Shown: one piece after another, positions 1 through 14,945 of the stretch | How the letters are laid out: every line of letters starts with the position of its first letter | Position numbering within the stretch: position 1 is the first letter of the stretch | Source of the DNA: Candidatus Latescibacterota bacterium | Lineage (GTDB): Bacteria; Latescibacterota; Latescibacteria; Latescibacterales; Latescibacteraceae | DNA: 15,584 bases | Assembly: GCA_016927495.1 (NCBI GenBank) | Contig: JAFGMP010000236.1 | Coordinates: 1 to 15,584 of the forward strand | Reading direction: 5' to 3' | Notes under the pieces: generated by a model | The model's database searches: none | Told to the model about the DNA's origin: nothing | Seen by the model: only the letters and a program-made list of their open reading frames with translations | Program-made: the position numbers and the translations under genes

Positions 1-15
1 ATTTTGGATATTGTA

Positions 16-1998
16 TCAATAAGGCGCCCACGATGTAATATGTCCGATAAGCGGTGTGTACGGCGGCTGTCCTGCAGGAGTAGAAAGATCGGGATCGTAC
101 ATATAAACGCGAACAGGAGGATTGTATCCTGTTTTTTGCACCCACGCAAGTTCATCGGTCTGTATTCCCGAATTATCGAGATTCGCACACATTACAGCGC
201 CATCAAGATGAACTACAGAGCCGAATTTTGTCAGCGTTTTTCCCGACCAGTTCTCCACAAGATCATCACAGTTTGCCCATGGATCACCACTATTATTGGG
301 GTCATTGTATCCTGCCGCGGTTTTCGGGGATTCGGGATTATATCTGACTATACCGCTCCAGTCATATCTGTTGTTATCATCACGGTCAGCCCAGTTATAT
401 TCATCAACAGTAGGCGCACCATCAACAAGTGCCGCATTAATTCTTGTATTAACTGCGCTTCTGTTTTTGGAATTTGTCGACTGAGCATCGCTGAATATAC
501 CGCTTAAATGATATATTCTGTGTACAGTCATAATTGCGCAGCCTTTTTTCTCTATTGTGTTAAAATCTCCCAATGTATATATGGTCCTGCAACTTGAAAC
601 CATTAATTTGTTCTGAAGTTTTGCTGTGTTTTTTAGCCTAACGGGCACATCACAGTATATTAAACCGTTTGAAGGCCAGTCGTTTGTTGTTGCTTCCTTA
701 AATAAAATACCGTCTGTAGCGCCACCGGTTACAGACTCACTGACTATGATATTAGTATTACCTCCGGCGTTAACTGCACTAACAACGGTATATGCATTAT
801 TCAAAGCGGTTCTTGTAAAACAACTGACGACATAAACGGCATCGCCGGCGTTATATTCGGTTTCATGATTGCCTAAAATGGTAATTCTTTTCGTTGCACC
901 GTCAGACGCAACTACGGAATAATCGGCTCCGCCGGAAATCAGATCGGCAAAATCAATCTCCCAGGCTGTTATCCACCGCTGTTCATTCCAGTTCCAGAAT
1001 GTCACTTGACTGCACCATGGTTCTGTTGAATGTGTTGTATTATTGATGTGGAGTTGAGCTTCCTGGTCATAATACTCACCGGGGTTAAGGTTTTGAACGG
1101 GAGGAGGCGACTTATATGGCACTTTGTCACGTACTACACCACCCCAGAGAGCTTTCGCACCAACTGTTTTGTCAGTCCAGTTTGCATTGTATGAGTCGAA
1201 TGCCAGACCCTCTGAACCACGAGGACTGCCGGGTTCCATTTCAATCCAGATACCGGATCCTTCACTATTTTTCGTTATTTCACATGCACCACTTGTATCA
1301 GGTCGGCCCCAGGCGTCTCTGCTTCGTATCATATTTCCGGTTGCTGTTACGGAAGATGAATTTATTCGTAAGGTTGCACCGGTTGGCCTTATATACATAT
1401 GCCCGTTTGCATGTACTTTACCCCTTATTTCCTGCGAGGCTCCACGGGTGAATTCACCAAGGTCCCTTGAGGCAAAATAAGAAAACTGGAACATTGTCTC
1501 AATCTCACCCTGAGCCCTTGTACGCTTTCGAATTTTGTCATACCATCCCTCAGACTCAATGATAAAAGAGAAGTTTGAGGTATAGTATACTCTGAACTTA
1601 AAACCGTGACGTTTGTCGGTGTCCCACATGGGATCATAGCCTTTCGATGAATCCCATTCCCATACATAACTACCGTCACTATCGATATAATAATTCGCAA
1701 GAGATGTTGGCAGAAGATCTTCACCGGTTTCCGATTGTGCCATATCGAGCGTATGAGTTGTTTGAAGAAAACCTGTATTGATGAATTCACGATATGCAAC
1801 ACGAGCACCTATTTCAGCCATATTCCGAGCCTGCATATTTATTTCGTAGTTACGGGATAGTGCAGCGTTTGTCGACGTACTTGTTATCACCCCGACACCT
1901 ACAACTGTTAGAGTCATGAGGATTACAAGCACGAGAACAAGGGCAAATCCCCGTTCTGAATTGCTACATCGATTAATCATAGATCTAATACTAACCAT
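16..1998 (-). CDS. Large PilX-like type IV pilus minor pilin / pilus-associated protein (660 aa)
   Basis: The ATG at 1998 lies 13 nt downstream of the PilW-like stop. The N-terminus NSERGFALVLVLVILMTLTVVGVGV has the PilX_N-like hydrophobic helix that follows a short polar leader. The ~500-aa C-terminal region is rich in W, Y, N, D and G and was not recognised. Gene order fimT-pilV-pilW-pilX matches canonical minor-pilin operons. Confidence 0.6.
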   Translation of the reverse strand: MVSIRSMINRCSNSERGFALVLVLVILMTLTVVGVGVITSTSTNAALSRNYEINMQARNMAEIGARVAYREFINTGFLQTTHTLDMAQSETGEDLLPTSLANYYIDSDGSYVWEWDSSKGYDPMWDTDKRHGFKFRVYYTSNFSFIIESEGWYDKIRKRTRAQGEIETMFQFSYFASRDLGEFTRGASQEIRGKVHANGHMYIRPTGATLRINSSSVTATGNMIRSRDAWGRPDTSGACEITKNSEGSGIWIEMEPGSPRGSEGLAFDSYNANWTDKTVGAKALWGGVVRDKVPYKSPPPVQNLNPGEYYDQEAQLHINNTTHSTEPWCSQVTFWNWNEQRWITAWEIDFADLISGGADYSVVASDGATKRITILGNHETEYNAGDAVYVVSCFTRTALNNAYTVVSAVNAGGNTNIIVSESVTGGATDGILFKEATTNDWPSNGLIYCDVPVRLKNTAKLQNKLMVSSCRTIYTLGDFNTIEKKGCAIMTVHRIYHLSGIFSDAQSTNSKNRSAVNTRINAALVDGAPTVDEYNWADRDDNNRYDWSGIVRYNPESPKTAAGYNDPNNSGDPWANCDDLVENWSGKTLTKFGSVVHLDGAVMCANLDNSGIQTDELAWVQKTGYNPPVRVYMYDPDLSTPAGQPPYTPLIGHITSWAPY

Positions 1999-2011
1999 AT
2001 TCTCACACCTT

Positions 2012-2890
2012 TTAGATGATAACTATGTTCTGAGGAATTACCAGGCCTTTAATTTCGACACGTCTGTAACCATCACCATATACAGGATCAATATAATTCG
2101 GTATCGGTTCGGATGTTTTTGAACGCAATGTCATTTCAATTTCCCTTATATCATAAATCTCATCAGGTTCCGGCTCTGTAATCCATGAGCCATCTTTCAT
2201 ATTGAACCGAATCTGAAAGTCTTCAACATCCCCAAGAAGAATTTGCGGATCATATGCCTGATGTTTTAGCATTAAATTTATTCTGCCTTCATCGTCCGTA
2301 TCGACATAAAAAGTAAGATGAGTAACAACCTGTATCGAACTGCCTGTATTATAAACATGGTCAAGTTGATTGTCATCATTCCAGGGCAGCGATGCATCAT
2401 GCCACAGTGTGGTTGAGTTTTTATTTGTAACTATAAATATTTCCGTAAATGTGCCATCAGAGATTACACACAGATCTCCTGTTTCAATTTCATCCGTGGA
2501 ATTACATTTAATCTGATCACCTTCACTTGCCATATTCTGGGTTGTTGTCACCGTGACTGCTTTGAAACTACCCATGATTGTTAATGAATCAGGGCTATCA
2601 TCAACACCATCGACAGCTTCTATCACAGCCCATCCGCTTGTAGGTGGTACTCCATTACCTGCCAATCTCACATGGTCATAAAGGAAATTCATAGCCCACC
2701 GTAATTCCTGCTGCATTTCGGATTCCTGACGTTTAACACTAAAACGTGTAACCTGATCAGCCATGAACTGAAACATTAACACTGCGAGTATTGAACCTAT
2801 GGTCATAGCGACCAGAAGTTCCGCAATAGTCATACCCTTTTCATTGTTACGAAAACGAGGTCTATTTATACCAATCAATTTTTTTTGCAT
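2012..2890 (-). CDS. PilW-like type IV pilus minor pilin (prepilin-type N-terminal cleavage/methylation domain)
   Basis: Leader MQKKLIGINRPRFRNNEKG, then MTIAELLVAMTIGSILAVL (G-1, E+5), then QVTRFSVKRQESEMQQELRWAMNFLYDHVRLAG, which is typical of PilW. The ORF track starts at an in-frame GTG at 2902. I prefer the ATG at 2890, which has a GGGGAG about 11 nt upstream. Confidence 0.6.
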   Translation of the reverse strand: MQKKLIGINRPRFRNNEKGMTIAELLVAMTIGSILAVLMFQFMADQVTRFSVKRQESEMQQELRWAMNFLYDHVRLAGNGVPPTSGWAVIEAVDGVDDSPDSLTIMGSFKAVTVTTTQNMASEGDQIKCNSTDEIETGDLCVISDGTFTEIFIVTNKNSTTLWHDASLPWNDDNQLDHVYNTGSSIQVVTHLTFYVDTDDEGRINLMLKHQAYDPQILLGDVEDFQIRFNMKDGSWITEPEPDEIYDIREIEMTLRSKTSEPIPNYIDPVYGDGYRRVEIKGLVIPQNIVII

Positions 2891-2929
2891 TACGGCATTC
2901 ACTCCCCAAAATTTAACCGAATAATGAAG

Positions 2930-3340
2930 TTAGTTGCTCTGATCGATACATACCGATGTAAGCGTAACTGTCTCAAGATTTCCAGTTGTACTCTCCCATT
3001 GAACTTTGGATGTAATTAACTTAGACCTTGGTATGGGATTCAGGTCATCTATTGTCCAAAACTGGTAGAAAACCCCGTTTGAATCACCGGTCGCGTTTAC
3101 CGGGTTCAGAGGATTCTCATAAGAGTTTTCTGCAAGATTTGGGTTCTCGTAGCCATCCGTCAAAAGTTGTTCAATTTTATTTTGAGCAAGCAAGACAGCC
3201 TGTGTGTGACGCTGGCTGTGAAAATTCCTTTGTACAATTTCCGATATTATCGAACCGACAATTCCAATTCCCACAACAAGAATCACCGAGGCCATTATCA
3301 CTTCGATCAGAGTGAAACCTTTTTCAGAGTTGTATTTCAT
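2930..3340 (-). CDS. PilV-like type IV pilus minor pilin
   Basis: N-terminus MKYNSEKGFTLIEVIMASVILVVGIGIV is a class III prepilin signal (G|FTLIE). TQAVLLAQNKIEQL follows, as in PilV. The start overlaps the upstream gene's stop as ATGA (3337-3340). Confidence 0.65.
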   Translation of the reverse strand: MKYNSEKGFTLIEVIMASVILVVGIGIVGSIISEIVQRNFHSQRHTQAVLLAQNKIEQLLTDGYENPNLAENSYENPLNPVNATGDSNGVFYQFWTIDDLNPIPRSKLITSKVQWESTTGNLETVTLTSVCIDQSN

Positions 3341-3822
3341 AAGTTTCTCTCCCGTATCCTGCCGGTAAGATAGTTTAATTCAACTTTTGTCGAATCTATC
3401 GAACTGTTAGTAATTATTATAGTCCCAGTCATTTCACCTCCTGTTAAACAGGATTTTTCAAGTTGTCCGAATTCATTAAATATGACAAGCCAATCCTCAA
3501 AATTATTCTCACTAATGGAAATTCCTGATTCAAGACTGTAACCGGCACCCCTGATTTCATTTGCACCTTCAGGATCACGAATGATATAAAAGTTACCGCT
3601 TCCGCCCTCATCGAATTGAACACCGTACGGTTCCGCTTCATTTACAGCCTTCATTCTGGCAGTGTAAAGTGATGCGGTCACCGTTGCAGTACTTGTGCGA
3701 AGTTTATCCTTTTTGAATACAAGATTAAGTGATGGTACCGCCAAACCTGCCATAATACCAATAACAACCATGACAATCATTAATTCAACGAAAGAAAAAC
3801 CGGATTCATTTGGCTTCATCAT
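3337..3822 (-). CDS. FimT/FimU/GspH-like minor pilin (pseudopilin)
   Basis: N-terminus MMKPNESGFSFVELMIVMVVIGIMAGLAVPSL has the prepilin cleavage/methylation motif (G|FSFVE). The following region, LNLVFKKDKLRTSTATVTASLYTARMKAV, resembles the GspH/FimT family. It is the first gene of the pilin operon and has a GAGAG upstream. Confidence 0.65.
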   Translation of the reverse strand: MMKPNESGFSFVELMIVMVVIGIMAGLAVPSLNLVFKKDKLRTSTATVTASLYTARMKAVNEAEPYGVQFDEGGSGNFYIIRDPEGANEIRGAGYSLESGISISENNFEDWLVIFNEFGQLEKSCLTGGEMTGTIIITNSSIDSTKVELNYLTGRIRERNL

Positions 3823-4190
3823 AGCACTCTCTTTAATAACATATATAAATCAAGTCGGGTTAAGTTTTTCAACATCACCTATTGTTTCTTGTAGCAAAAC
3901 GATACAAAATTTTCATTTCGGGACACTTTGATCAATACTAATTTTTTTAAATTGTTAAACCTACGCTATATAGTATATTCTATTTTTTCCTTTTGTAAAT
4001 AGAAGTTTTCTGCTTAAGCTTTTCATTTGATACATTCATTTTTCCAATGTTTTATTTGATTTTTATGATGTATTTAACGCAAAAAACATGCCGTTTAAAA
4101 AAATAAAATTGCACGGAAACCAGGTATGTTGTATTTTTTGCCTTAATAAATCACAACAATGTATTAATTTCTCTGAAAAGAAAGAATGGT
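3823..4190. promoter_or_regulatory. AT-rich divergent intergenic region between the pilin operon and the pfkB kinase gene; candidate sigma70-like promoter for the kinase is TTGCAC(4109-4114)-17 nt-TATTTT(4132-4137)
   Basis: A 368-nt very AT-rich non-coding spacer lies between divergently oriented genes. The -35/-10-like hexamers with 17-nt spacing were read directly. No experimental support. Confidence 0.25.
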
Positions 4191-5102
4191 ATGATCGCAG
4201 CAATCGGTATATCGGTACTCGATACGATAATGGTGATGGACGGTTTTAAATCCGCTGAGGGATCGTATCACTGTGAGAAACTTATCATTGAAGGCGGCGG
4301 TATGGCTGCAACCGCCCTTTGTACGGCTTCAAAGCTTGGTTCGCAAACACGTCTGTTTTCAAGGATTGGAAACGATGTATTCGGCAAACGGCTGCTGGAA
4401 GAGCTGAGAGATTTCGGGGTTGACATTTCGGGGACAATAACGCTAAAAAACAGAAATACTACCGCTTCTGTTGTGTTTGTCGATTTAAATACCGGAGAAA
4501 AACAATTTTATTCGGAATGGGATAAATCCGCATACATAGATTCCTGCTCACTTAATGTCAATTTGCTCGAAGGTGTTAAAATCATGCTTGTGGACGGACA
4601 TTGGACAGAAGGAGCATATGAGGGTCTTGTATGGGCCCGCGCACAGGAAATTCCTGTAGTTGCCGATTTTAAAAGAAAGTATAATGGCATCGAAAAATTA
4701 TTTCCCTTCATCGATTATTTCATCATACCGATGTTTTTTGCCGAAGAAATAACCGGAGAAAAAAAAACGGATCGAATGCTTCATAAACTTACCGAGCTGC
4801 AGCCGGGCATCCCGGTTATAACTTGCGGAGTTCAGGGAGGAGCATATATCGTCGAAAATGATATCAAACGTTACAAGGCATTTCCTATAAAAGCAGTTGA
4901 TTCAACAGGAGCGGGTGACGCTTTCCATGGGGCATTTTGCCATTTCATTTCCCATGGTGTAGAACTGTCCCGCTGTCTGGAATTATCTTCTGCTGTTGGC
5001 GCACTCAACTGTCGTGCCCACGGTGGTAGATCTGCTCTTCCGTCACGAGAAGAACTAAAGGTTTTTCTTAAAAATCATAATGTGGATCCGGAATTTCCAT
5101 AA
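4191..5102 (+). CDS. pfkB/ribokinase-family carbohydrate kinase
   Basis: An N-terminal beta-strand plus GG motif (IGISVLDTIMV...EGGGMAATALCTASKLG) and a C-terminal anion-hole/catalytic motif DSTGAGDAFHGAF (DTxGAGD) are diagnostic of the ribokinase/pfkB superfamily. Length is 303 aa. Confidence 0.8.
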   Translation: MIAAIGISVLDTIMVMDGFKSAEGSYHCEKLIIEGGGMAATALCTASKLGSQTRLFSRIGNDVFGKRLLEELRDFGVDISGTITLKNRNTTASVVFVDLNTGEKQFYSEWDKSAYIDSCSLNVNLLEGVKIMLVDGHWTEGAYEGLVWARAQEIPVVADFKRKYNGIEKLFPFIDYFIIPMFFAEEITGEKKTDRMLHKLTELQPGIPVITCGVQGGAYIVENDIKRYKAFPIKAVDSTGAGDAFHGAFCHFISHGVELSRCLELSSAVGALNCRAHGGRSALPSREELKVFLKNHNVDPEFP

Positions 5103-5310: not shown

Positions 5311-5436
5311 ATGGGTAACAGAAAATTGAGAAAAGCTGAAATACGGCAAAGGCGTCAACGACGCGAAAAACGTCAGAAACAGAAAAAAAATGAATTGATT
5401 ATGAAAGCACAGGAAAAAAAAGATAAAAAGGATTGA
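5311..5436 (+). CDS. Small (41 aa) extremely basic Arg/Lys-rich protein, MGNRKLRKAEIRQRRQRREKRQKQKKNELIMKAQEKKDKKD
   Basis: This ORF is not in the six-frame track because it is under 60 aa. GGAGG lies 4 nt upstream of the ATG, a candidate promoter is upstream, and a strong hairpin+T8 terminator lies 76 nt downstream. Composition is about 50% K/R. It may be a ribosome- or nucleic-acid-associated small protein, but it could also be non-coding. Confidence 0.4.
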   Translation: MGNRKLRKAEIRQRRQRREKRQKQKKNELIMKAQEKKDKKD

Positions 5437-5511
5437 AACTTTTTTCCTGTTCAGGCATATTAAATACAGGTCGACAAAAAATTGCGCTGTCGGCCGTAGA
5501 ACCTCCCTTTC

Positions 5512-5545
5512 GAAACCCCGGTTGTATTTGACCGGGGTTTTTTTT
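5512..5545. terminator. Rho-independent terminator hairpin (9-bp GC-rich stem AACCCCGGT/ACCGGGGTT, 8-nt loop) followed by T8 on the plus strand; A-run on the other side allows weaker bidirectional function for the convergent BMC operon
   Basis: Stem 5514-5522 pairs with 5531-5539, loop is tgtatttg, and the T-run is 5538-5545. The site lies between the convergent small ORF (plus) and the aldehyde dehydrogenase gene (minus, ends 5630). On the minus strand the stem is followed only by TTTC. Confidence 0.6.
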
Positions 5546-5629
5546 GCTCAATAAAAAATGCGCACCGTTCTTTTTCAAAAACACGTACGCATATTTATTA
5601 TTTGCTTCGATATTCTTTCTCAGTCAATC

Positions 5630-7114
5630 TCAGACAAACCGCAGACTCCCTGCTATCGCCAGACGTCTGATTTTACAGAAATTAATCGGTGATGTGACGC
5701 CCTCACCGGTAGGAGTTGCGATTGTGAAAGCCATATACGCTTCGCCATCATCAGGACCGTCACCCTGATTACTGTAGCCGTTTGCCACCACAATTGTTGT
5801 ATTCATTGCTTTGGCAAAAGTTGTAATACGATCCATGTCTTTCGAATGAATGAGCGCCGTATGTCGATACCCATGTTCTGCTTCCAGACAACACTGTAAA
5901 CCGTCATCGAAATCTTTAACCCTGACAATAGGAAGAAGCGGCATCATCTGTTCTTCTTTTACTAACAGATTATCCTTGTCCGTTTCACCGAAAAGGAGAC
6001 GTGTACCCTCGGGAATGTTTAACTTCACAAGATCGGCAAGATAACTGGTGCTTCTGCCCACCATCTCACGATTAAGTACATGACCGCCTTTTTCGTTTGA
6101 AATAAAAGCTTTTTTGGTCAACAGGTCCATATGAATACTTTCGATTTTTACAGCGCCGGCTTTTTCCATCGCCATCATAAACCTGTCAAAAACGGATTCT
6201 ACAACAAAGACCTCTTTTTCAGCGATACAGAGGAGATTATTATCAAACGAAGCGCCTCTGATAATATCCCGTGCGGCTTTTTCAATATTGGCTGTTTCAT
6301 CGACCAGAACCGGCGGATTTCCGGGACCTGCGGCTATCACCTTTTTATCGGTGGCCATAGCAGCTTTAACAACACCCGGTCCTCCGGTTATCGACAATAA
6401 CGCGACATCAGGATGGTTGAACATGCTATTCGCCGTCTCGATTGTCGGATTCTCCACACAGGTAATAAGGTTTTCCGGAAAACCTCCCGCAACTATAGCT
6501 TTATGGAATATCTGCAGAGCATAGGCGCTTATTTTTTTTGCTCCGGGGTGAGGATTGAAAATTACAGTGTTACCCCCGGCAAGCATAATGATCGCGTTGT
6601 TGACCAACGTGGGAACCGGATGCGTGGACGGAGTTATTGCTCCTATTATCCCGAATGGCGCAAATTCCTCGATCGTGACGCCGGTTTCTCCCGACCATGA
6701 CCGTGAAACAAGATTCTCGGTACCGGGTGAATTTTTTGCGCAGTTTCTGTGTTTTAAAATCTTGTCTCTGATGTTCCCCATGCCGGTTTCTTCGAAAGTC
6801 ATCTTGCTGAATTCTTCTGCATAATCCAAAGTGACCCTGCGCAGGATACCGATGAGACGTTCACGTTCTCTGACACCAAATTTATTAAATTCAAAAAATG
6901 CTCTTTTGGATGCTGCAATTGCATCTTCCATACGGTCGAATACACCATCTTTGCCGCGTAAACCGGCCGATGATGCAACTGGTCTCATGGATTGTGGCGA
7001 TAAAGATGGTGTTACTGCACCCGATCCGGCTTTGGGTAGCGCCGTTCCGGACGTTTTTGCCACCGATGCAACAACAGATTCAACTATGCTTCTGATTTGT
7101 TGTTCGTCAATCAT
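5630..7114 (-). CDS. CoA-acylating aldehyde dehydrogenase (EutE/PduP family) with N-terminal encapsulation peptide
   Basis: The ALDH fold starts at GVFDRMEDAIAASKRAF. The catalytic Cys lies in FDNNLLCIAEKE. A ~55-aa N-terminal extension (amphipathic helix IDEQQIRSIVESVVASV plus an S/P/A/G-rich linker) is typical of BMC-targeted AldDH. AAGAGG lies 8 nt upstream of the ATG. Confidence 0.9.
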   Translation of the reverse strand: MIDEQQIRSIVESVVASVAKTSGTALPKAGSGAVTPSLSPQSMRPVASSAGLRGKDGVFDRMEDAIAASKRAFFEFNKFGVRERERLIGILRRVTLDYAEEFSKMTFEETGMGNIRDKILKHRNCAKNSPGTENLVSRSWSGETGVTIEEFAPFGIIGAITPSTHPVPTLVNNAIIMLAGGNTVIFNPHPGAKKISAYALQIFHKAIVAGGFPENLITCVENPTIETANSMFNHPDVALLSITGGPGVVKAAMATDKKVIAAGPGNPPVLVDETANIEKAARDIIRGASFDNNLLCIAEKEVFVVESVFDRFMMAMEKAGAVKIESIHMDLLTKKAFISNEKGGHVLNREMVGRSTSYLADLVKLNIPEGTRLLFGETDKDNLLVKEEQMMPLLPIVRVKDFDDGLQCCLEAEHGYRHTALIHSKDMDRITTFAKAMNTTIVVANGYSNQGDGPDDGEAYMAFTIATPTGEGVTSPINFCKIRRLAIAGSLRFV

Positions 7115-7140: not shown

Positions 7141-7413
7141 TTACACCATCTGTTCCATGTCTTCATGCGGGCTTGCAATAACCTGTGTGGCAACAACTTC
7201 TCCTACACGGGCTGCGGCTTCGGTTCCGGCCTCAACTGCCGCTTTTACTGCAGCGACATCACCCCTGACCATAACCGCAATATATCCGCTTCCCGTTTTT
7301 TTGTAGCCCTGAAGACTCACCGAAGCGGCTTTGAGCATTGCATCAGCGCCTTCCACTGCGGCTATGAAACCTCTTGTCTCTATAAATCCTAATGCTCTTC
7401 CTGTAACTGCCAT
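7141..7413 (-). CDS. BMC-H hexameric shell protein (Pfam00936, PduA/EutM-like)
   Basis: MAVTGRALGFIETRGFIAAVEGADAMLKAASVSL...GDVAAVKAAVEAG is a canonical single BMC domain. AGGAGG lies 5 nt upstream. Confidence 0.9.
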   Translation of the reverse strand: MAVTGRALGFIETRGFIAAVEGADAMLKAASVSLQGYKKTGSGYIAVMVRGDVAAVKAAVEAGTEAAARVGEVVATQVIASPHEDMEQMV

Positions 7414-8291: not shown

Positions 8292-9479
8292 TTACCGAGT
8301 ATCGCTAACTACTTTTACAGTCTCACGGGCAACAATAATTTCTTCATTCGTATCAAGGACAAGCGCTGCAATCTTCGATCCTTCAGCATCGATACGTTCG
8401 CTGTTAGCCTCATTCGCGCTTTTGTCAAGTTTGAATCCCAGAAATTCCAGTGAAGTGAGGATCTCCGACCGCAGAGCACTGTCTTTCTGACCGGTTCCTC
8501 CGGTAAAACAAACAGCATCTACACCGCCCATGAATAAAATATATGCACCCATATAGAACTTGATATCATAAATAAACTTGTCACGGGCAAGCTGCGCTTG
8601 TTTGCTCCCCTTTCTGATGGCTTCAATTACATCCCTCATATCTCCTGACGTTCCGGAAAGACCCTTGAGTCCACCGTTCGATCCCAGTTCTCTATACGCA
8701 TCTTCAAGACTTATACCTTTTTTCTTCATAATGTACGGAACAATAAACGAATCCATATCACCGACACGTTTGGATTGAATAACACCCGTCTGTGTGCTGA
8801 AACCCATAGATGTATCTATAGCAACTCCGTCTTTAAACGCACATACCGAGGATGATCCCCCGAGGTGACACGCAATAACTTTATGATTTTTCAGATCGAG
8901 TTTCAGAATACGAACAGTTTCTCCGGTAACAAATCTCAATGATGCGCCATGATAGCCGTATTTACGGACACCATATTTTTCAAACCACTCAACTGGAGTG
9001 CCATAAACCTGGGCATATTCCGGCCTGTTAATATGAAATCCCGGTTCGAATACACCCACCAGCGGTTTTTCAGGTAACAGATCTTTAAACATCCTTATCG
9101 CTTCAAGGTATGGAGGATTATGAGCCGGCGCGATGTCGCTGTATTCATCCATTGCCGCAATAACTTTTTTTGTCAACAGTACCGAACCGTTTTGCTCTCC
9201 TGCCTGCACGGTTTTAAATCCTACCGCATCGATTTCTGACAAATCGTTTATAATTTCCGATGTCAGAAATTCGAGCCCCCGCCTGACCGCTTCCTTCTGA
9301 TTAAGTACCGGCTTTTCTTCATCGATGATAATGTCTCCCGAACCACGGTAATAGGTGCCATGCGCATTATCCGATCCTACACGTTCGATATGGACATGTG
9401 CGATAATGCTTTCAGTCTCCATATCGATGAACTGGAATTTGAATGAAGTCGATCCTATATTACAAACTATAACTTTCAT
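8292..9479 (-). CDS. ackA: Acetate/propionate kinase (AckA family)
   Basis: N-terminus MKVIVCNIGSTSFKFQF (the ASKHA fold beta1 / phosphate-1 motif). Length is 395 aa. Internal motifs HLGGSSSVCAF and FTGGTG are typical of acetate kinases. Confidence 0.9.
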   Translation of the reverse strand: MKVIVCNIGSTSFKFQFIDMETESIIAHVHIERVGSDNAHGTYYRGSGDIIIDEEKPVLNQKEAVRRGLEFLTSEIINDLSEIDAVGFKTVQAGEQNGSVLLTKKVIAAMDEYSDIAPAHNPPYLEAIRMFKDLLPEKPLVGVFEPGFHINRPEYAQVYGTPVEWFEKYGVRKYGYHGASLRFVTGETVRILKLDLKNHKVIACHLGGSSSVCAFKDGVAIDTSMGFSTQTGVIQSKRVGDMDSFIVPYIMKKKGISLEDAYRELGSNGGLKGLSGTSGDMRDVIEAIRKGSKQAQLARDKFIYDIKFYMGAYILFMGGVDAVCFTGGTGQKDSALRSEILTSLEFLGFKLDKSANEANSERIDAEGSKIAALVLDTNEEIIVARETVKVVSDTR

Positions 9480-9553: not shown

Positions 9554-9820
9554 TCACATTGCCACATCATCAATAATAGCCAGAATATTAGCGTCGGAAC
9601 CGGTCATATCAGGGTGAAATGCCATTGCCGATTCCGGACCACCTTCATACAGGACAATCTGGCCTTCTCCGCATCCTATATAATCAAAAGTGATTATCAG
9701 GTTACCTGGTTTTTTTATATCACGGATATCTATTTCTTCCATTACCCTGAGCTTTTTGCCCGCAAGCGCAGGAAGCGTTTTGTTCAATACCAAATTACCG
9801 CGTACTTTGCCGGTTTCCAT
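9554..9820 (-). CDS. BMC-P pentameric vertex protein (EutN/PduN/CcmL family), paralog 3
   Basis: METGKVRGNLVLNKTLPALAGKKLRVM...IGCGEGQIVLYEGG matches the BMC-P fold pattern. Length is 88 aa. Confidence 0.8.
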   Translation of the reverse strand: METGKVRGNLVLNKTLPALAGKKLRVMEEIDIRDIKKPGNLIITFDYIGCGEGQIVLYEGGPESAMAFHPDMTGSDANILAIIDDVAM

Positions 9821-9886: not shown

Positions 9887-10621
9887 CTATATGCCGGTGA
9901 AACCTGAAATTATTGCTTCGGGATTCGATATCGATCCAAGCACAATCACATTAGCGCCTATATCGATCCTTGCGGCACGGGCATCATACGTGTCTCTGCA
10001 GTGGACGGCACGAACAGCGCTGTTTCTGTTTGCATGAATCGGAGCCTCCATTCCCGTGTTTTCAAGACAGACTCCGAAATGAGCGCCGCCTGAAACTACC
10101 ATATCCGCAAGCTTTTTTACATTTGCTTCATACGACCCGCCGGTAATTTCTTTTATCGTCAAATGTTTTGCTGCAAGAATATTCTTCAAAATTGAACCAT
10201 CACCCTTAAAATCCGGAGCAATAACGAGCGCAACAGAAATGGTACCCTGTATTGAAGAAACATTCCCAGATTTATTACCTGCTGCACCATCAATACGGTT
10301 GATAGTTATTTTCTTTTCTTTGGCAAAATCCAGCGCCAATGGCGTTATAACAGCCTTTTTTGTTATGGTGACGGTTTGCCCTTTTACTGCTTCGAGATCT
10401 TTCTGAGTAATAACCTGTTTCCCCGACATATCAGCGTTACCCGCTGCAGGTGCTTCAACAGGCAGTGTCGGACGAATCGATACCTGAGCCGGAACAGGTG
10501 ATTGTTGTGCCGGAGCTTGACTGCCGCTTGTTTCGGCAGACGAACTTACCGGAATACCCCGCTGGTTAAGAACTCTTTTTACTTCTGTAATAATCGCTTC
10601 GACAAGTTCATCGTGATTCAT
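9887..10621 (-). CDS. Encapsulation-peptide-tagged RpiB/LacAB-family sugar-phosphate isomerase-like protein (EP + linker + small unassigned module + RpiB-like domain)
   Basis: The N-terminus MNHDELVEAIITEVKRVL is an amphipathic helix, followed by a ~45-aa S/A/P/Q-rich linker. The middle module reads VITQKDLEAVKGQTVTITKKAVITPLALDFAKEKKITI. The C-terminal ~115 aa align to the RpiB core: GVCLENTGMEAPIHANRNSAVRAVHCRDTYDARAARIDIGANVIVLG versus RpiB [47 protein letters not shown]. Glu sits at the catalytic Cys/Glu position. The N-terminal GSDHAG motif has diverged to APDFKG. Confidence 0.6.
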   Translation of the reverse strand: MNHDELVEAIITEVKRVLNQRGIPVSSSAETSGSQAPAQQSPVPAQVSIRPTLPVEAPAAGNADMSGKQVITQKDLEAVKGQTVTITKKAVITPLALDFAKEKKITINRIDGAAGNKSGNVSSIQGTISVALVIAPDFKGDGSILKNILAAKHLTIKEITGGSYEANVKKLADMVVSGGAHFGVCLENTGMEAPIHANRNSAVRAVHCRDTYDARAARIDIGANVIVLGSISNPEAIISGFTGI

Positions 10622-10645: not shown

Positions 10646-10903
10646 TTAACGCTCAACTATATCATCTATAATTCCGCATAACCATGCTCTTTGAGGAACA
10701 ATGGGATCATTATGCATTTCCTGCGATCCTATACCATCCCAATTGAGAATAACTCTGTCACCTTTACCTGATGCGGTAAAATCAACCACAACCTGCGGCC
10801 TGCCCTGGGGCTGTCCCTTTGCATCAAGTACCTGAACAATCATTAGCTTTTTCCCATTAAGGCAGGGATGTTTGATTGTAGAAGTAACACTTCCAAGTAC
10901 CAT
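10646..10903 (-). CDS. BMC-P pentameric vertex protein (EutN/PduN/CcmL family), paralog 2
   Basis: MVLGSVTSTIKHPCLNGKKLMIVQVLD...ASGKGDRVILNWDG matches the BMC-P pattern. The ORF track begins at an in-frame TTG at 10921 (MRLREG-). The ATG at 10903 gives the canonical M-x-x-G-x-V-x-S-T N-terminus. The true start is ambiguous. Confidence 0.75.
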   Translation of the reverse strand: MVLGSVTSTIKHPCLNGKKLMIVQVLDAKGQPQGRPQVVVDFTASGKGDRVILNWDGIGSQEMHNDPIVPQRAWLCGIIDDIVER

Positions 10904-11034
10904 TCCCTCTCTCAACCGCAAACCTCATACTAAAAAATTAAACCATAAAATTCGTTACCTGTTTCATTTCGAAAACAACTTGTAATGTATCTCTTCTGTA
11001 ATAACTTGTATTCATCCTGTCTGCAATCAAATAT

Positions 11035-11583
11035 TTATACGAGATGCGGTATCAGTTCCGGATTCACCGACGGAATAACCACCGAAGCAATGAGCACTCC
11101 TCTGTCTTTAACTCCTTCAAGCGCAGCATCCATTGCCGACTGGACATTCTGGACAGAACCGGTAACGATCACATATGATTTTCCGGCAAGTCCCTTACCG
11201 AGCCTGAGTTCGATTATTTCCACATCGGAGGTTTTCACCATCGTATCGGCGCCCTCGATTGTTGCCGTCATCGTCATCGTTTCAAAAACACCGATTGAAG
11301 CGCCGATATTAACAATATCAGGACTGTAAAACGCCGAAAGAACTTTGTCATCGATACGAGGCAAAATGAGCGAGTCCAGAAAATTGAAATCGGCAATTCC
11401 CTTTGCAAGATCAATCGCTTCCCGGACAGCTCCGACATCTCCTGTAAATAATATCTGATAACGCCCGGGACAGTTTGGAGCGGAAAGCAAAATATCAATC
11501 GCCGTATTTTTGGAAATAAGATCGGCGGCCTGTATACCTTTTCCGACACTTATATATTCGAGAAAACCAATACATTTACTCAT
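11035..11583 (-). CDS. BMC-T tandem-domain shell protein, PduT-like with conserved pore cysteine (putative [4Fe-4S] site)
   Basis: Two BMC domains (IGFLEYISVGKGIQAADLISKNTAIDIL and IGVFETMTMTATIEGADTMVKTSDVEIIEL) sit in 182 aa. LLSAPNCPGRYQILFTGDVGAVREAI aligns with Salmonella PduT [27 protein letters not shown], including Cys38. The start overlaps the PduS stop as ATGA. Confidence 0.85.
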   Translation of the reverse strand: MSKCIGFLEYISVGKGIQAADLISKNTAIDILLSAPNCPGRYQILFTGDVGAVREAIDLAKGIADFNFLDSLILPRIDDKVLSAFYSPDIVNIGASIGVFETMTMTATIEGADTMVKTSDVEIIELRLGKGLAGKSYVIVTGSVQNVQSAMDAALEGVKDRGVLIASVVIPSVNPELIPHLV

Positions 11584-12956
11584 GAACCGGCACCCCTGAT
11601 TACAATATATTCATTCGTAACTTCTTCTACATGGCCATGTATTGATGCATGTACTCGCGCCCCCATTCCATTTTCAGGAATTTCACCGATCAGATCACCG
11701 GTTTTTACACTCTCCCCCTGTTTTACCACCGGTTTTGCCGGAGCACCTATATGCTGAAGAAGCGGGATACGCACCTTTCCGGGTATGAACGAACCAAGTG
11801 GTTCGAATTCTGTGTGTCCGAGATACCGTTCGAGGCCAAGTTTACGGGCATATGTTAAAGCCGGAAGTTTTCGATAATTAAACATTGCACCATCATACTG
11901 AGGCATCTTTGAAAAATCATACTTCAATCCCGACCGTTTTATAGCATCGCGAACCATAGCATATACTTTGTTGGGAGCCAGGCCGAAAATGCATGCGTAT
12001 TGTTCACAAACACCACACTGGCAGCACAAAATTGATTCGAATACCATCTGTTTTGTGAATTCATCGAGGTCATGCGCTTCAATTTTCCTTATAATCTCAT
12101 CGACAAACCATGAGTATGACATCATTTTTGCCGGTGAAATGGCATGGCCTATAGCGTTTCTCGGGCAAAGTATAGTACATTCCTGACAGGTGCAGCACAT
12201 TTTTGCCCGCTGTTTCGTAATACGGACAGGTTCTTTTTTTAATCGAACCATCGTGTGGTCTTTCGGCAATACTATTACACCCCCAAATCGCTTATCGATA
12301 ACATCGTCCGTATCACCGATCGGCCCCATTATAGGTCCGCCCAAAATGATCTCGTAATCAGTTACAGTTACTCCGCCCGCAAATGCTATAAGGTCTTTTA
12401 CAGGCGTTCCTATCGGAACCTCAACGGTAACCGGACGGGCTACTTCCCCACCGATGGTAACATTTCGTGAAGTAACGACCTTACCGTCAAGCGCATCGGA
12501 AATCTGCTTGAATGTAGCCACATTGCTAACCGTCACACCAATCATAAAAGGCAAACCGCCCTGTGGCACCGTCTTTCCGGTCACATCACGGATCAGGACA
12601 AGCTCATCGCCTGCGGGATAAGAATTTTCGAGAATACCGATTTCGAATTCCGGTTTACCTGATATTACCTGAGAAACAGCATCGATGGCAGCGGTATTTT
12701 TATTTTTGATACCGATGATTCCCTTTCGGGCGCCAACCTGTTCCATCGCCGCTTCCATACCGCGTATGAAACTGCCGGGATTTTTTTCCATGAGATGTTT
12801 ATCGGCTTCGAGAATAGGTTCACATTCGGCGCCGTTAGCAATAACGGTGTCGACAGCATTTCCCAATTTAACATGAGTGGGAAATCCCGCACCGCCAGCC
12901 CCTACTATTCCGGCATCACGAACAATTGAAACAATATCGACGGCAGTCCGGCTCAC
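11580..12956 (-). CDS. PduS-like (RnfC/NuoF-like) NAD(H)- and FMN-binding iron-sulfur oxidoreductase
   Basis: N-terminus MSRTAVDIVSIVRDAGIVGAGGAGFPTHVKL closely matches PduS (GVVGAGGAGFPAHVKL). Two ferredoxin-like Cys clusters are present: CCTCQECTILCP and CCQCGVCEQYAC. The gene starts at GTG and overlaps the upstream BMC-P stop as GTGA. Confidence 0.85.
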   Translation of the reverse strand: MSRTAVDIVSIVRDAGIVGAGGAGFPTHVKLGNAVDTVIANGAECEPILEADKHLMEKNPGSFIRGMEAAMEQVGARKGIIGIKNKNTAAIDAVSQVISGKPEFEIGILENSYPAGDELVLIRDVTGKTVPQGGLPFMIGVTVSNVATFKQISDALDGKVVTSRNVTIGGEVARPVTVEVPIGTPVKDLIAFAGGVTVTDYEIILGGPIMGPIGDTDDVIDKRFGGVIVLPKDHTMVRLKKEPVRITKQRAKMCCTCQECTILCPRNAIGHAISPAKMMSYSWFVDEIIRKIEAHDLDEFTKQMVFESILCCQCGVCEQYACIFGLAPNKVYAMVRDAIKRSGLKYDFSKMPQYDGAMFNYRKLPALTYARKLGLERYLGHTEFEPLGSFIPGKVRIPLLQHIGAPAKPVVKQGESVKTGDLIGEIPENGMGARVHASIHGHVEEVTNEYIVIRGAGS

Positions 12957-13273
12957 TCTTTCTCACCTTTCCGATACACAAAATTGGTGTCAACCGACAC
13001 TGAATCGACAATCCCGATTATCAGACCATCCGTAGGTATACTCGCCGTTGTATCTGTCATACGGGCGGAAGATCCCTGTACGACAAGCACCAATTCACCC
13101 CGTCCGGCGCCAATCGGATCGTTTACTATCAGTGTGGTTCCGGTCGGCAGAATTTTACTGCCTTTAGGATCATTTGTAATATTCTGAACCTCGATAAGTA
13201 GAAACTTCTGCCCGATCAGTCGGTCAATCTTCACTGACGACACTATTTCACCGATAACTTTACCGACTACCAC
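12953..13273 (-). CDS. BMC-P pentameric vertex protein (EutN/PduN/CcmL family), paralog 1
   Basis: VVGKVIGEIVSS...GSSARM...DGLIIGIVDSVSVDTNFVYRK aligns with CcmL/EutN, including the C-terminal DTVSRDNYLLYSK-like segment. GTG start, with GAGGT 8 nt upstream. Confidence 0.85.
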   Translation of the reverse strand: MVVGKVIGEIVSSVKIDRLIGQKFLLIEVQNITNDPKGSKILPTGTTLIVNDPIGAGRGELVLVVQGSSARMTDTTASIPTDGLIIGIVDSVSVDTNFVYRKGEKE

Positions 13274-13430: not shown

Positions 13431-13793
13431 TTACACTCCGGGGCTTTTCTTCTGATCACCCGCAGGTGAAGCTTTTGTCGTTTTCGGTTTGGGAGCATTT
13501 GCCTTTTCTGCCGGTTTTTCTGCCTCCACGATGCCGATAAAAGCTTCCATTTCCTTATGAGGGCTCGCTATAACCTGAGCAGCAACGACCTTGCCAATAG
13601 CCGCGGCAGAACCTGCGCCTGCATCGACAGCAGCTTTTACTGCCGCCACATCTCCGGTCAGAATGATCATAACAAGTCCACTGCCTGCACGCATCTGAGT
13701 CAGAAGGGAAACATTGGCCGCTTTCAGAGCCGAATCGGCAGCCTCCACCGCGGCAACAAATCCCTGTGTCTCAATGAAACCCAAAGCTTGCAT
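13431..13793 (-). CDS. BMC-H shell protein with ~35-aa Lys/Pro/Ala-rich C-terminal extension
   Basis: The BMC domain is MQALGFIETQGFVAAVEAADSALKAANVSL...GDVAAVKAAVDAG. The tail reads EAEKPAEKANAPKPKTTKASPAGDQKKSPGV. AGGAG lies 6 nt upstream. Confidence 0.85.
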   Translation of the reverse strand: MQALGFIETQGFVAAVEAADSALKAANVSLLTQMRAGSGLVMIILTGDVAAVKAAVDAGAGSAAAIGKVVAAQVIASPHKEMEAFIGIVEAEKPAEKANAPKPKTTKASPAGDQKKSPGV

Positions 13794-13908: not shown

Positions 13909-14175
13909 TTATTTGAAAAGTCCATCCAGTTCTTCATGAGGACGCGGAATAATGTGCGATGAAATGAACTCTCCTACATTTTTCGCCACTTCAGTGCCGG
14001 ATTCCACGGCTGCTTTGACCGAACCTACGTCGCCGGTGATAACTGTGGTTACAAAACCACCACCGATGCCAACCTGTTTGAGCAGTTCAACGCTGGCGCT
14101 CTTCAACATCGCATCGGTTGCAATTGCGAGTCCTGTGAATCCTCTTGTTTCAAGAAGTCCTATTGCTTTTCTCAT
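13909..14175 (-). CDS. BMC-H hexameric shell protein
   Basis: MRKAIGLLETRGFTGLAIATDAMLKSASVELL...GDVGSVKAAVESG is a canonical BMC domain. GGAGG lies 10 nt upstream. Confidence 0.9.
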   Translation of the reverse strand: MRKAIGLLETRGFTGLAIATDAMLKSASVELLKQVGIGGGFVTTVITGDVGSVKAAVESGTEVAKNVGEFISSHIIPRPHEELDGLFK

Positions 14176-14216: not shown

Positions 14217-14945
14217 TTAATCTTTTATTATCTCGACATCTTTGCCGCAGCCAATATCCGCGACATTTCCCTCGTCCGTATCAAGATGTACTTCGAGCCG
14301 TACATTATCGGATACCCGCACCACCATATTTTCAAACGTTACCGCATTAGGCCCTCCAACCCTGAGCTTAACTTTATCTCCATTTTTCAGCCCGAAATAT
14401 GCTGCCTCTTTTGGATTCATGTGAACATGCCTCATGGCACGGATACAACCCTCGTCAAGTTCGACAACACCTTTTGGGCCAATTATTGTTATAGGCGCAG
14501 AACCCTTTATATCACCGGAAATTCTTAATGGTGCATCGATACCTAGAAAAATAGCATCAGTTTTGGCCAGTTCAACCTGAGTTCTATCTCTCAAAGGCCC
14601 GAGAATCCTTACTTTTTCAAGAAGCCTCGTTTTGGGTCCGATTAGCGCCACTGTCTGTTTCTCAGCATGAGTGCCGGGTTGATATAATTCCCGTAAATGA
14701 TCGAGTTCAGCACCGGGACCGAATAGTTTTTCAAGATGTTCTTTGCAGAGATGTACATGACGAACCGAAACTCCAACCGGTATTCTTTTCGGATTAATCG
14801 AATCATATACAACATTTTCCGTTTCTTTTTTTTCCGGTTCTTTTGATGGTACCGTTAGGTTAATTCGTTCAAATACTTCCCGAACAATCCGATTGAGTAT
14901 ATCCTGGTCAATCGAAGGTGTCCGGCTTACATTTGTGTTATTCAT
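14217..14945 (-). CDS. pduL: PduL-type phosphotransacylase (Pfam06130) with N-terminal encapsulation peptide
   Basis: Two PduL repeats with His-rich metal sites are present (IPVGVSVRHVHL and IRAMRHVHMN). The N-terminal amphipathic helix DQDILNRIVREVFERI plus a linker precedes the catalytic domain, as in encapsulated PduL. Confidence 0.85.
   Translation of the reverse strand: MNNTNVSRTPSIDQDILNRIVREVFERINLTVPSKEPEKKETENVVYDSINPKRIPVGVSVRHVHLCKEHLEKLFGPGAELDHLRELYQPGTHAEKQTVALIGPKTRLLEKVRILGPLRDRTQVELAKTDAIFLGIDAPLRISGDIKGSAPITIIGPKGVVELDEGCIRAMRHVHMNPKEAAYFGLKNGDKVKLRVGGPNAVTFENMVVRVSDNVRLEVHLDTDEGNVADIGCGKDVEIIKD

Follow-up and report, generated by a model that had tools for sequence, protein, structure and literature searches.

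A YihV-like sugar kinase neighbouring the SPU-like microcompartment operon of Latescibacterota

Bacterial microcompartments (BMCs) of the type termed "SPU-like" were described from Latescibacteria single-cell genomes (Axen 2014), and the signature enzyme that defines true SPU loci is the deoxyribose-phosphate aldolase DERA (PF01791) (Dwyer 2024, PMC11585597). Published guesses at the substrate of the SPU-like BMC include fucose, rhamnose and sugar phosphates of no specified kind, and the class II aldolases of PVM and GRM5 BMCs process fuculose-1-phosphate and rhamnulose-1-phosphate (Axen 2014; Sutter 2021). No discussion of a kinase in Latescibacteria SPU-like loci was found in the papers and supplementary tables searched. 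The closest characterised relative of the kinase considered here is E. coli YihV, the 6-deoxy-6-sulfofructose kinase, which phosphorylates the C1 hydroxyl of the ketofuranose (residue roles from PMC8006165). The present analysis concerns a pfkB/ribokinase-family sugar kinase gene that lies beside a 13-gene BMC operon on contig JAFGMP010000236.1 of a Candidatus Latescibacteria metagenome-assembled genome (MAG); the whole 15,584-bp contig is referred to as the window (Table 1). We tentatively prefer, at somewhat less than even confidence, to read its product as a YihV-like cytosolic ketose kinase of a Latescibacterota clade that would most likely supply ketose-1-phosphate to the encapsulated class II aldolase of the operon as an accessory, separately regulated step.

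A YihV-like member of the pfkB family

The product of the open reading frame (ORF) is a pfkB/ribokinase-family sugar kinase that uses ATP and is intact, soluble and not encapsulated, and the initial annotation had recognized correctly both the family and the BMC operon alongside. PF00294 (PfkB) is its single Pfam match (residues 2-285 against profile positions 4-301/302, E 5e-37, 128.2 bits against a cutoff of 25.8), and the FGGY domains PF00370 and PF02782 are absent. The AlphaFold2 model of the protein, with 38 relatives as input, has a mean pLDDT of 95.4 and a pTM of 0.93 and shows the ribokinase fold, i.e. an alpha/beta nucleotide-binding domain with a beta-sheet lid, that Foldseek matches at TM 0.85-0.90 to YihV, to the Agrobacterium protein 2rbc and to ribokinases. 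Because D11, the GGG motif G35-G37 and the catalytic and anion-hole segment D237-S-T-G-A-G-D243 (D237 and T239-D243) are invariant across the 38 relatives, D243 aligning with YihV D244 and RbsK D255, the enzyme is predicted to be catalytically competent. The NXXE Mg/phosphate motif is not retained; RbsK N187 and E190 correspond to P180 and F183 of a "PMFF" stretch in which P180 and F182 are invariant. This is no argument for inactivity, since the biochemically active YihV is also non-canonical here ("SEPG"). The fold begins at residue 2, the last helix (286-295) is ordered and no block falls below pLDDT 85. The kinase thus carries no encapsulation peptide, as had been supposed, and no linker-plus-helix extension of the kind found on the RpiB-like protein, the aldolase, the aldehyde dehydrogenase (AldDH) and PduL of the operon. 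It had also been called the only kinase in the window; it is the only sugar kinase, but the acetate kinase of the operon is a second kinase, for a non-sugar substrate.

YihV is the best match in the PDB by sequence (7ag6, E 1.8e-32; 29% pairwise identity with one gap), and in the structure search it scores TM 0.89, against ~0.85 at 20-22% identity for ribokinases. The two proteins share the pfkB fold with a short beta-lid in a near-gapless full-length alignment (7ag6/7agh/7agk), the GGGxAATA motif, the catalytic GAGD Asp, an Asp and a Ser that bind the sugar O3/O4, and the non-canonical NXXE region. The YihV ligands of the C1-C4 hydroxyls, D13, S95 and D244, are retained as D11, S93 and D243; this match is not specific because D11 and D243 are also common to ribokinases. 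In contrast, none of the YihV sulfonate triad K27/N109/R138 (PMC8006165) is kept, S25/S108/H137 standing in its place, and Asp162 of YihV, the partner of an in-trans Lys, is Lys161 in the kinase. The pocket that holds the C6 substituent in YihV is thus a different one here. The genetic settings are also partly alike; yihV too is separately transcribed and adjoins an aldolase-containing catabolic cluster, but no sulfoglycolysis genes lie near the present kinase, and in place of YihT, which we take to be of the class I LacD/DeoC aldolase family, its partner is a microcompartment-borne class II aldolase of the FucA type. A putative ribokinase of Agrobacterium tumefaciens (2rbc) is second by sequence (E 1.2e-27) and has TM 0.90 at 26% identity; it belongs to the same YihV-like branch and, being uncharacterised and from another phylum, adds no substrate information.

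Other kinases are more remote. RbsK (TIGR02152) is of the same superfamily and overall fold and represents the top-scoring NCBIfam model, but is only 20% identical, and its residues N14, K43, N46 and E143, which we take to be the ribose ligands of the E. coli enzyme, are replaced by V9, M38, T41 and G136. The FGGY kinases FucK and RhaB catalyse the reaction that the initial annotation had proposed for the present enzyme, i.e. the conversion of a ketose to its 1-phosphate ahead of a class II aldolase, but are of unrelated fold and family (PF00370/PF02782). The name "sulfofructose kinase", which JGI has attached to many relatives in the clade, is ruled out by the missing sulfonate triad, and the name "ribokinase" by score and by the missing ribose ligands; since both fail, "YihV-like kinase" is the description that remains. 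It is a new and uncharacterised member of a well-known kinase family, and overturns nothing.

Relatives of at least 45% identity form a discrete group, beyond which identity falls to ~35%; the group was recovered in 99 of 100 neighbour-joining (NJ) bootstraps, with E. coli YihV and RbsK as the sole reference kinases, and every organism-named member of it is labelled Latescibacterota. Among species-representative genomes only five loci reach at least 53% identity, four of them titled Latescibacterota and one an unclassified "uncultured bacterium" MAG.

The kinase at related loci

The kinase gene lies outside the BMC operon on the opposite strand, divergent from the pseudopilin genes on one side and convergent on the other with the 3' end of the operon, which is the AldDH gene. 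The same arrangement of an intact kinase convergent to AldDH occurs at ten independent loci, here cited by our own handles (the window, L001, L002, L003, L006, L009, L010, L011, L095 and the P0055 contig). In L006 some 6 kb of sulfur-metabolism genes have come between the pilins and the kinase, yet the kinase still stands beside the BMC, and the kinase is kept at 51-78% identity where AldDH has diverged to ~70%. No FGGY-domain gene was called within ~10 kb in any related locus; the initial annotation had allowed for a dedicated FGGY kinase lying just outside the window, and none was called in the flanks of these related loci.

A number of observations weigh against the proposed supply of ketose-1-phosphate by the kinase. 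Co-transcription with the operon is excluded because the kinase is convergent on the opposite strand, and a terminator-like hairpin separates it from AldDH. A comparison of the regions upstream of kinase and PduL at four loci for shared k-mers of at least 10 nucleotides, as would mark a common operator, yielded one AT-rich 13-mer in the window alone and hence no evidence of co-regulation. Loci that lack the kinase came to light when retrieval was by way of the RpiB-like marker instead of the kinase. Both L172 and the P0139 contig have a complete BMC operon and neither kinase nor pilins, and in Ca. Latescibacter sp. L173 (GCA_030692375.1, 9711-10063) the kinase is a deletion pseudogene beside an intact operon; what is left of it, at 65% identity, is residues 1-36 and 215-303, which lie in different reading frames and are accompanied by a stop, ~180 codons being gone. 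No PfkB gene is listed near AldDH in the published SPU-like loci of the single-cell genomes (SAGs) B13 and K07 (Axen 2014 Dataset S2). The intact adjacent kinase has in this way been lost or has decayed at five loci with an intact BMC (L172, the P0139 contig, L173 and SAGs B13 and K07), and is not a conserved member in the sense of being present at all SPU-like loci. Among 17 contigs of at least 20 kb carrying the RpiB-like marker, the kinase is confirmed in five and probable in four, for which kinase and marker are on record on contigs of equal length; three have no intact copy, and five are unassigned.

The pseudopilin genes add to the same side of the balance. They adjoin the kinase at all ten kinase-bearing loci, with the 6-kb insert in L006, and accompany it almost as consistently as does the BMC operon; since the pilins share the neighbourhood, the adjacency of kinase and BMC may be inherited synteny. 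Inserts of 2-3.5 kb stand between the kinase unit and AldDH in three lineages (L010, L011 and the P0055 contig), that of the P0055 contig consisting of two DUF362 genes. The best NJ tree joins the BMC-adjacent kinases in one clade, but with support of only 24-42 in 100 bootstraps. At the level of the protein, no NCBIfam equivalog is reached, the best being ribokinase TIGR02152 at 105.3 bits against a cutoff of 299.65; because no curated family threshold is attained, regiochemistry and substrate derive solely from a 29%-identical relative, from which phosphorylation at C1 would be expected. The earlier proposal that the kinase provides the activating step for the BMC thus survives in part; an intact kinase is adjacent at ten loci, but it is convergent, and is missing or decayed at five others. 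The kinase is accordingly a frequent but dispensable neighbour of the BMC and not a defining part of the organelle.

Kinases of the sister clade stand in other surroundings. In a cluster that recurs in Latescibacterota (L005 4079-13913; L012 6537-12799, Ca. Latescibacter anaerobius; and the P0080 contig) a pfkB kinase shares its surroundings with a RuBisCO-like protein, a small cupin (PF01050, mannose-6-phosphate-isomerase-like), a dehydrogenase of the Mannitol_dh family and a transporter of SSF or MFS type. Some copies have in addition an aldolase, of class II fructose-bisphosphate (FBP) or DeoC type, URO-D or AP_endonuc_2 isomerases. The set resembles an uncharacterised pathway for a sugar or polyol in which a RuBisCO-like protein takes part. 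The sister kinase of L169 is set otherwise, its neighbours including an SSF transporter and a class II FBP-type aldolase, and one sister-clade member lies among sulfatases. A sister kinase is clustered with an aldolase in three of five non-BMC contexts (FBA_II in L005 and L169, the DeoC family on the P0080 contig). Farther out, the neighbours of 75 distant homologues of 28-35% identity (121 nearest-ORF proteins searched against Pfam) include OmpA, CycH, CoA-transferase and DNA ligase and show no aldolase or sugar theme; with such heterogeneous neighbours the wider kinase family gives no substrate information. Conversely, no pfkB homologue was found within 10 kb at other loci having aldolases 44-53% identical to that of the window, which are apparently of the Acidobacteria ACI type and PVM-like (the type deduced from gene order), together with non-BMC gut loci.

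A likeness outside the phylum is offered by the Atribacteria SPU locus of JGI 0000079-L04 (contig_16, genes 00375-00376), where a PF00294 gene and an AP_endonuc_2 "L-rhamnose isomerase" are directly upstream of the shell genes, and by a second Atribacteria locus with an FGGY "glycerol kinase" and URO-D downstream (Axen 2014 Dataset S2). The former is alike in having a PF00294 gene beside an SPU-type BMC, a table entry that has never been discussed, but that kinase is co-directional with the shell genes and has 196 residues, and the likeness is one of listed annotation alone. Sugar kinases beside SPU-type loci may thus be a wider, undiscussed pattern.

Possible role and competing readings

With 33% identity to E. 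coli FucA, the aldolase of the operon retains H96, H98 and H159 as Zn ligands; in alignment the catalytic Glu77 and the phosphate-binding residues N31, T46/G47 and S75/S76 are likewise in place. With both the Zn and the phosphate ligands kept it should produce dihydroxyacetone phosphate (DHAP) from a 1-phosphorylated ketose, in keeping with the initial supposition that it needs a substrate of the ketose-1-phosphate type. The aldehyde half of the substrate is not predictable: the alignment shows a deletion in the region of FucA Y113 and a Pro opposite F131, and we take these FucA residues to lie on the aldehyde (lactaldehyde) side of the active site. It was also supposed that an isomerase is encapsulated, and here the proposal fares poorly. 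The RpiB-like protein is recognisable only in the central part of the profile, ahead of which come a helix at the N-terminus, a linker rich in Pro, Ala and Ser and, at residues 60-107, a PduM/Eut-like segment, and compared with RpiB structures it has Glu187 at the position of the catalytic Cys and Arg209 at that of the catalytic His, both invariant in 7 orthologues. In the SPU homologue, where Asp occupies the Cys position, isomerase activity on ribose-5-phosphate was negligible, and that protein is possibly a scaffold (PMC11585597). An isomerase role for the encapsulated RpiB-like protein is therefore doubtful.

In the scheme that we tentatively prefer, the kinase in the cytosol would 1-phosphorylate a ketose, the ketose-1-phosphate would be cleaved by the encapsulated class II aldolase with formation of DHAP, and the aldehyde product would pass to AldDH, PduL and acetate kinase. 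The link between kinase and aldolase is suggested by neighbourhood and by the chemistry of the aldolase, and the nearest characterised relative, YihV, does indeed phosphorylate a ketose at C1, as the initial annotation had anticipated for some relatives of the enzyme. The link would be accessory and not obligatory, because related genomes keep the BMC after losing the adjacent kinase.

It is a substantial possibility that the kinase is instead a bystander, i.e. a cytosolic sugar kinase of some unrelated pathway that is carried along in a slowly rearranging block of pilin, kinase, micro-ORF and BMC genes. The convergent orientation with its own terminator, the pilins that keep the neighbourhood at every kinase-bearing locus, the five losses beside an intact BMC and the inserts before AldDH all fit such a history, as do the non-BMC sugar clusters of the sister clade and the heterogeneous, housekeeping-like neighbours of the distant homologues. 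It accounts less well for the kinase of L006, which has stayed by the BMC despite the 6-kb insertion that parts it from the pilins, or for the degree of conservation of the kinase relative to AldDH; moreover a DHAP-forming aldolase depends on phosphorylation of a ketose at C1, which is the reaction of the closest characterised relative, and no other sugar kinase is nearby. A narrower form of the supply role, in which the enzyme is a dedicated L-fuculose or L-rhamnulose 1-kinase that replaces the FGGY enzymes, is unlikely, and nothing points to either sugar in particular. In its favour are the fuculose-1-phosphate and rhamnulose-1-phosphate aldolases of the PVM and GRM5 compartments, the absence of an adjacent FGGY gene, and the substitution of the sulfonate pocket by the small or neutral S25, S108 and H137, although the replaced pocket is polar and not hydrophobic. 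Fucose and rhamnose have moreover been proposed as substrates of the SPU-like BMC (Youssef 2015), and a capacity to break down algal polymers rich in the two sugars is predicted for Latescibacteria. In the published annotation of Latescibacteria single-cell genomes, however, a fucose isomerase is encoded elsewhere in the genome, as are the enzymes credited with phosphorylating fuculose and rhamnulose, which are named "sugar (pentulose and hexulose) kinases" (Youssef 2015, PMC4454575 supplement); this counts against the supply role as a whole as well. By that published placement, the canonical kinases are apparently not missing from the phylum. The kinases so labelled, on whose family the paper's text is silent, are presumably of the FGGY family. 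In addition, no fucose or rhamnose isomerase, mutarotase or transporter occurs in any examined locus, and the aldolase departs from FucA by the deletion around Y113 and by Pro at F131.

Two further readings follow the family names. A ribokinase-type enzyme that makes ribose-5-phosphate, or the ω-phosphate of another aldose, for the RpiB-like protein might be suggested by the top-scoring model TIGR02152, by the ribokinases being the next structural neighbours, and by the encapsulation of an RpiB-like protein in the same locus. It is nonetheless improbable; the 105 bits are far from the cutoff of 299.65, the positions of N14, K43, N46 and E143 are not kept, the presumed isomerase has lost both its catalytic Cys and His while the SPU homologue shows negligible ribose-5-phosphate isomerase activity (PMC11585597), and a FucA-type aldolase would have no obvious use for a pentulose-5-phosphate. 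Most improbable of all is a sulfofructose kinase serving a sulfoglycolytic microcompartment. The closeness of YihV, the JGI name on several clade members, and the P0080 cluster, whose DeoC-family aldolase and cupin isomerase-like gene recall the sulfo-EMP pathway, might be cited for it, the sulfofructose phosphate (SFP) aldolase YihT being, as we presume, of the DeoC family. Established aldolase stereochemistry tells against it: the products of class II enzymes of the FucA type are 3R, and SFP is of the D-fructo (3S,4R) configuration. The triad K27/N109/R138 is wholly replaced, and no sulfoquinovosidase, sulfoquinovose (SQ) isomerase, SFP aldolase, sulfolactaldehyde (SLA) reductase or sulfonate exporter was found in the window or the related loci examined. 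A more speculative extension of the supply role, and a rather unlikely one, would have the YihV-like kinase 1-phosphorylate a modified ketose from algal polysaccharide, e.g. a ketohexose that is 6-deoxy or carries another C6 substituent, by a previously undescribed non-FGGY route that also takes in the FucA-like aldolase, the ketose-1-phosphate so formed being the true substrate of the SPU-like BMC and the micro-ORF peptide described below a new microcompartment-associated factor.

In practical terms, the kinase offers the least costly experimental way to the substrate of this BMC, being soluble, easily expressed and adjacent to the operon in most lineages. Because it lies outside the operon and has been repeatedly lost, it should neither enter the definition of the BMC type nor appear in reconstructions as "sulfofructose kinase" or "ribokinase".

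The micro-ORF, the operon and other features of the window

Between the kinase and the hairpin lies a micro-ORF that converges on AldDH, at the end of the SPU-like BMC operon. Homologues of 34-41 residues occupy the same position in all ten other loci for which DNA was at hand (11 of 11 with the window), e.g. L001 8381-8506 and L006 11087-11206; the ten include L172 (15065-15178, minus strand) and L173 (9471-9575, minus strand), where the kinase is absent or decayed. The peptides are ~40-50% Arg/Lys with a core RKLRRSE[LI]RxRRxRREKRxK, of which R7, E10, R15, R17 and K23 are invariant; a Pfam search gave no significant match, the best being DUF6800 at E 0.24. By its presence at the kinase-less L172 and L173 the micro-ORF is more tightly tied to the BMC operon than is the kinase, and it may be the more closely linked of the two to the organelle. 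From the sequence of the region, kinase and micro-ORF would form a separate transcription unit closed by a terminator that faces the 3' end of the BMC operon. The terminator was called by a consensus scan that would by chance yield ~2 sites of this kind over the region, the listed hairpin being the sole one with a long stem. Two Rfam matches to small RNAs in the 5399-5679 spacer (whole-window scan, E up to 1) have 24-32 bits against gathering thresholds of 80-100 and were dismissed as chance.

Table 1. Features of the window; positions count from the first nucleotide of the contig
Feature	Position	Strand	Basis
Four pseudopilin / minor-pilin genes, PilX_N-like	16..3822	-	N-terminal methylation motif, Pfam N_methyl; gene calls; tblastn synteny
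AT-rich divergent intergenic region, presumed kinase promoter region	3823..4190	.	Several sigma-70-like matches, consensus only
pfkB/ribokinase-family sugar kinase	4191..5102	+	Intact ATG-to-stop ORF, 303 aa; PF00294 match
Micro-ORF, 41 aa, Arg/Lys-rich (MGNRKLRKAEIRQRRQRREKRQKQKKNELIMKAQEKKDKKD)	5311..5436	+	Between kinase and terminator; GGAGG 6-10 nt upstream
Intrinsic-terminator-like hairpin	5512..5541	+	13-bp stem, 6 GC pairs, T-run; before convergent AldDH gene
Acylating AldDH, N-terminal encapsulation-peptide-like helix, last operon gene	5630..7114	-	Aldedh; PRK15398 583 bits vs cutoff 403
BMC-H shell protein	7141..7413	-	PF00936 called on L001 orthologue
Class II (FucA/AraD-type) aldolase, C-terminal encapsulation-peptide-like helix	7439..8218	-	Aldolase_II E 4.5e-45
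Acetate kinase family enzyme	8292..9479	-	PF00871 E 1.4e-93
BMC-P (EutN/CcmL) shell vertex protein	9554..9820	-	PF03319
RpiB/LacAB-like protein, N-terminal encapsulation-peptide-like helix + linker	9887..10621	-	PF02502 over residues 162-230 only
BMC-P shell vertex protein	10646..10921	-	PF03319 called on orthologues
BMC-T (tandem BMC domain) shell protein	11035..11583	-	PF00936, two stretches
PduS/RnfC-like flavin + Fe-S oxidoreductase	11580..12956	-	Pfam Complex1_51K, SLBB, RnfC_N, Fer4
BMC-P shell vertex protein	12953..13273	-	PF03319 called on orthologues
BMC-H shell protein	13431..13793	-	PF00936 called on orthologues
BMC-H shell protein	13909..14175	-	PF00936 called on orthologues
PduL-type phosphotransacylase, N-terminal encapsulation-peptide-like helix, first operon gene	14217..14945	-	Pfam PTAC E 9e-69, domain from residue 56

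The operon runs on the minus strand from 14945 down to 5630 in the order PduL, BMC-H, BMC-H, BMC-P, PduS/RnfC-like, BMC-T, BMC-P, RpiB-like, BMC-P, acetate kinase, class II aldolase, BMC-H, AldDH. It thus holds the set that marks an SPU-like BMC (AldDH, PduL, PduS, RpiB-like protein, class II aldolase, acetate kinase and shell genes) and has the order of the published SAG B13 locus. DERA, which would mark a true SPU locus, was not found, there being no DeoC-family match among the ten window proteins scanned or called in orthologous loci.

The aldolase has a further feature that is absent from FucA. Residues 217-229, between the catalytic domain and the C-terminal helix, carry an invariant GGxAC-xx-CG-x-CTG motif (C221/C224/C227), which may bind a metal or an Fe-S cluster; at only 215 residues, FucA of E. 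coli is without such a C-terminal extension. The pilin genes hold their position in the window, L001-L003 and L009-L011 though the proteins have diverged to 45-65% identity, with no apparent functional reason. Upstream of PduL, a DUF3047 gene is a conserved divergent neighbour in most SPU-like loci (L003 20533-, L006 20643-, L007 11100-, the P0139 contig and SAG B13); the window ends short of that position. In the kinase-less L172 (flanks 1-4553 and 15558-20717) the operon is flanked by a glycolytic run of PFK, class II FBP aldolase, GAPDH, PGK and TIM, and on the opposite side by NuoE/NuoF-type and iron-hydrogenase domains.

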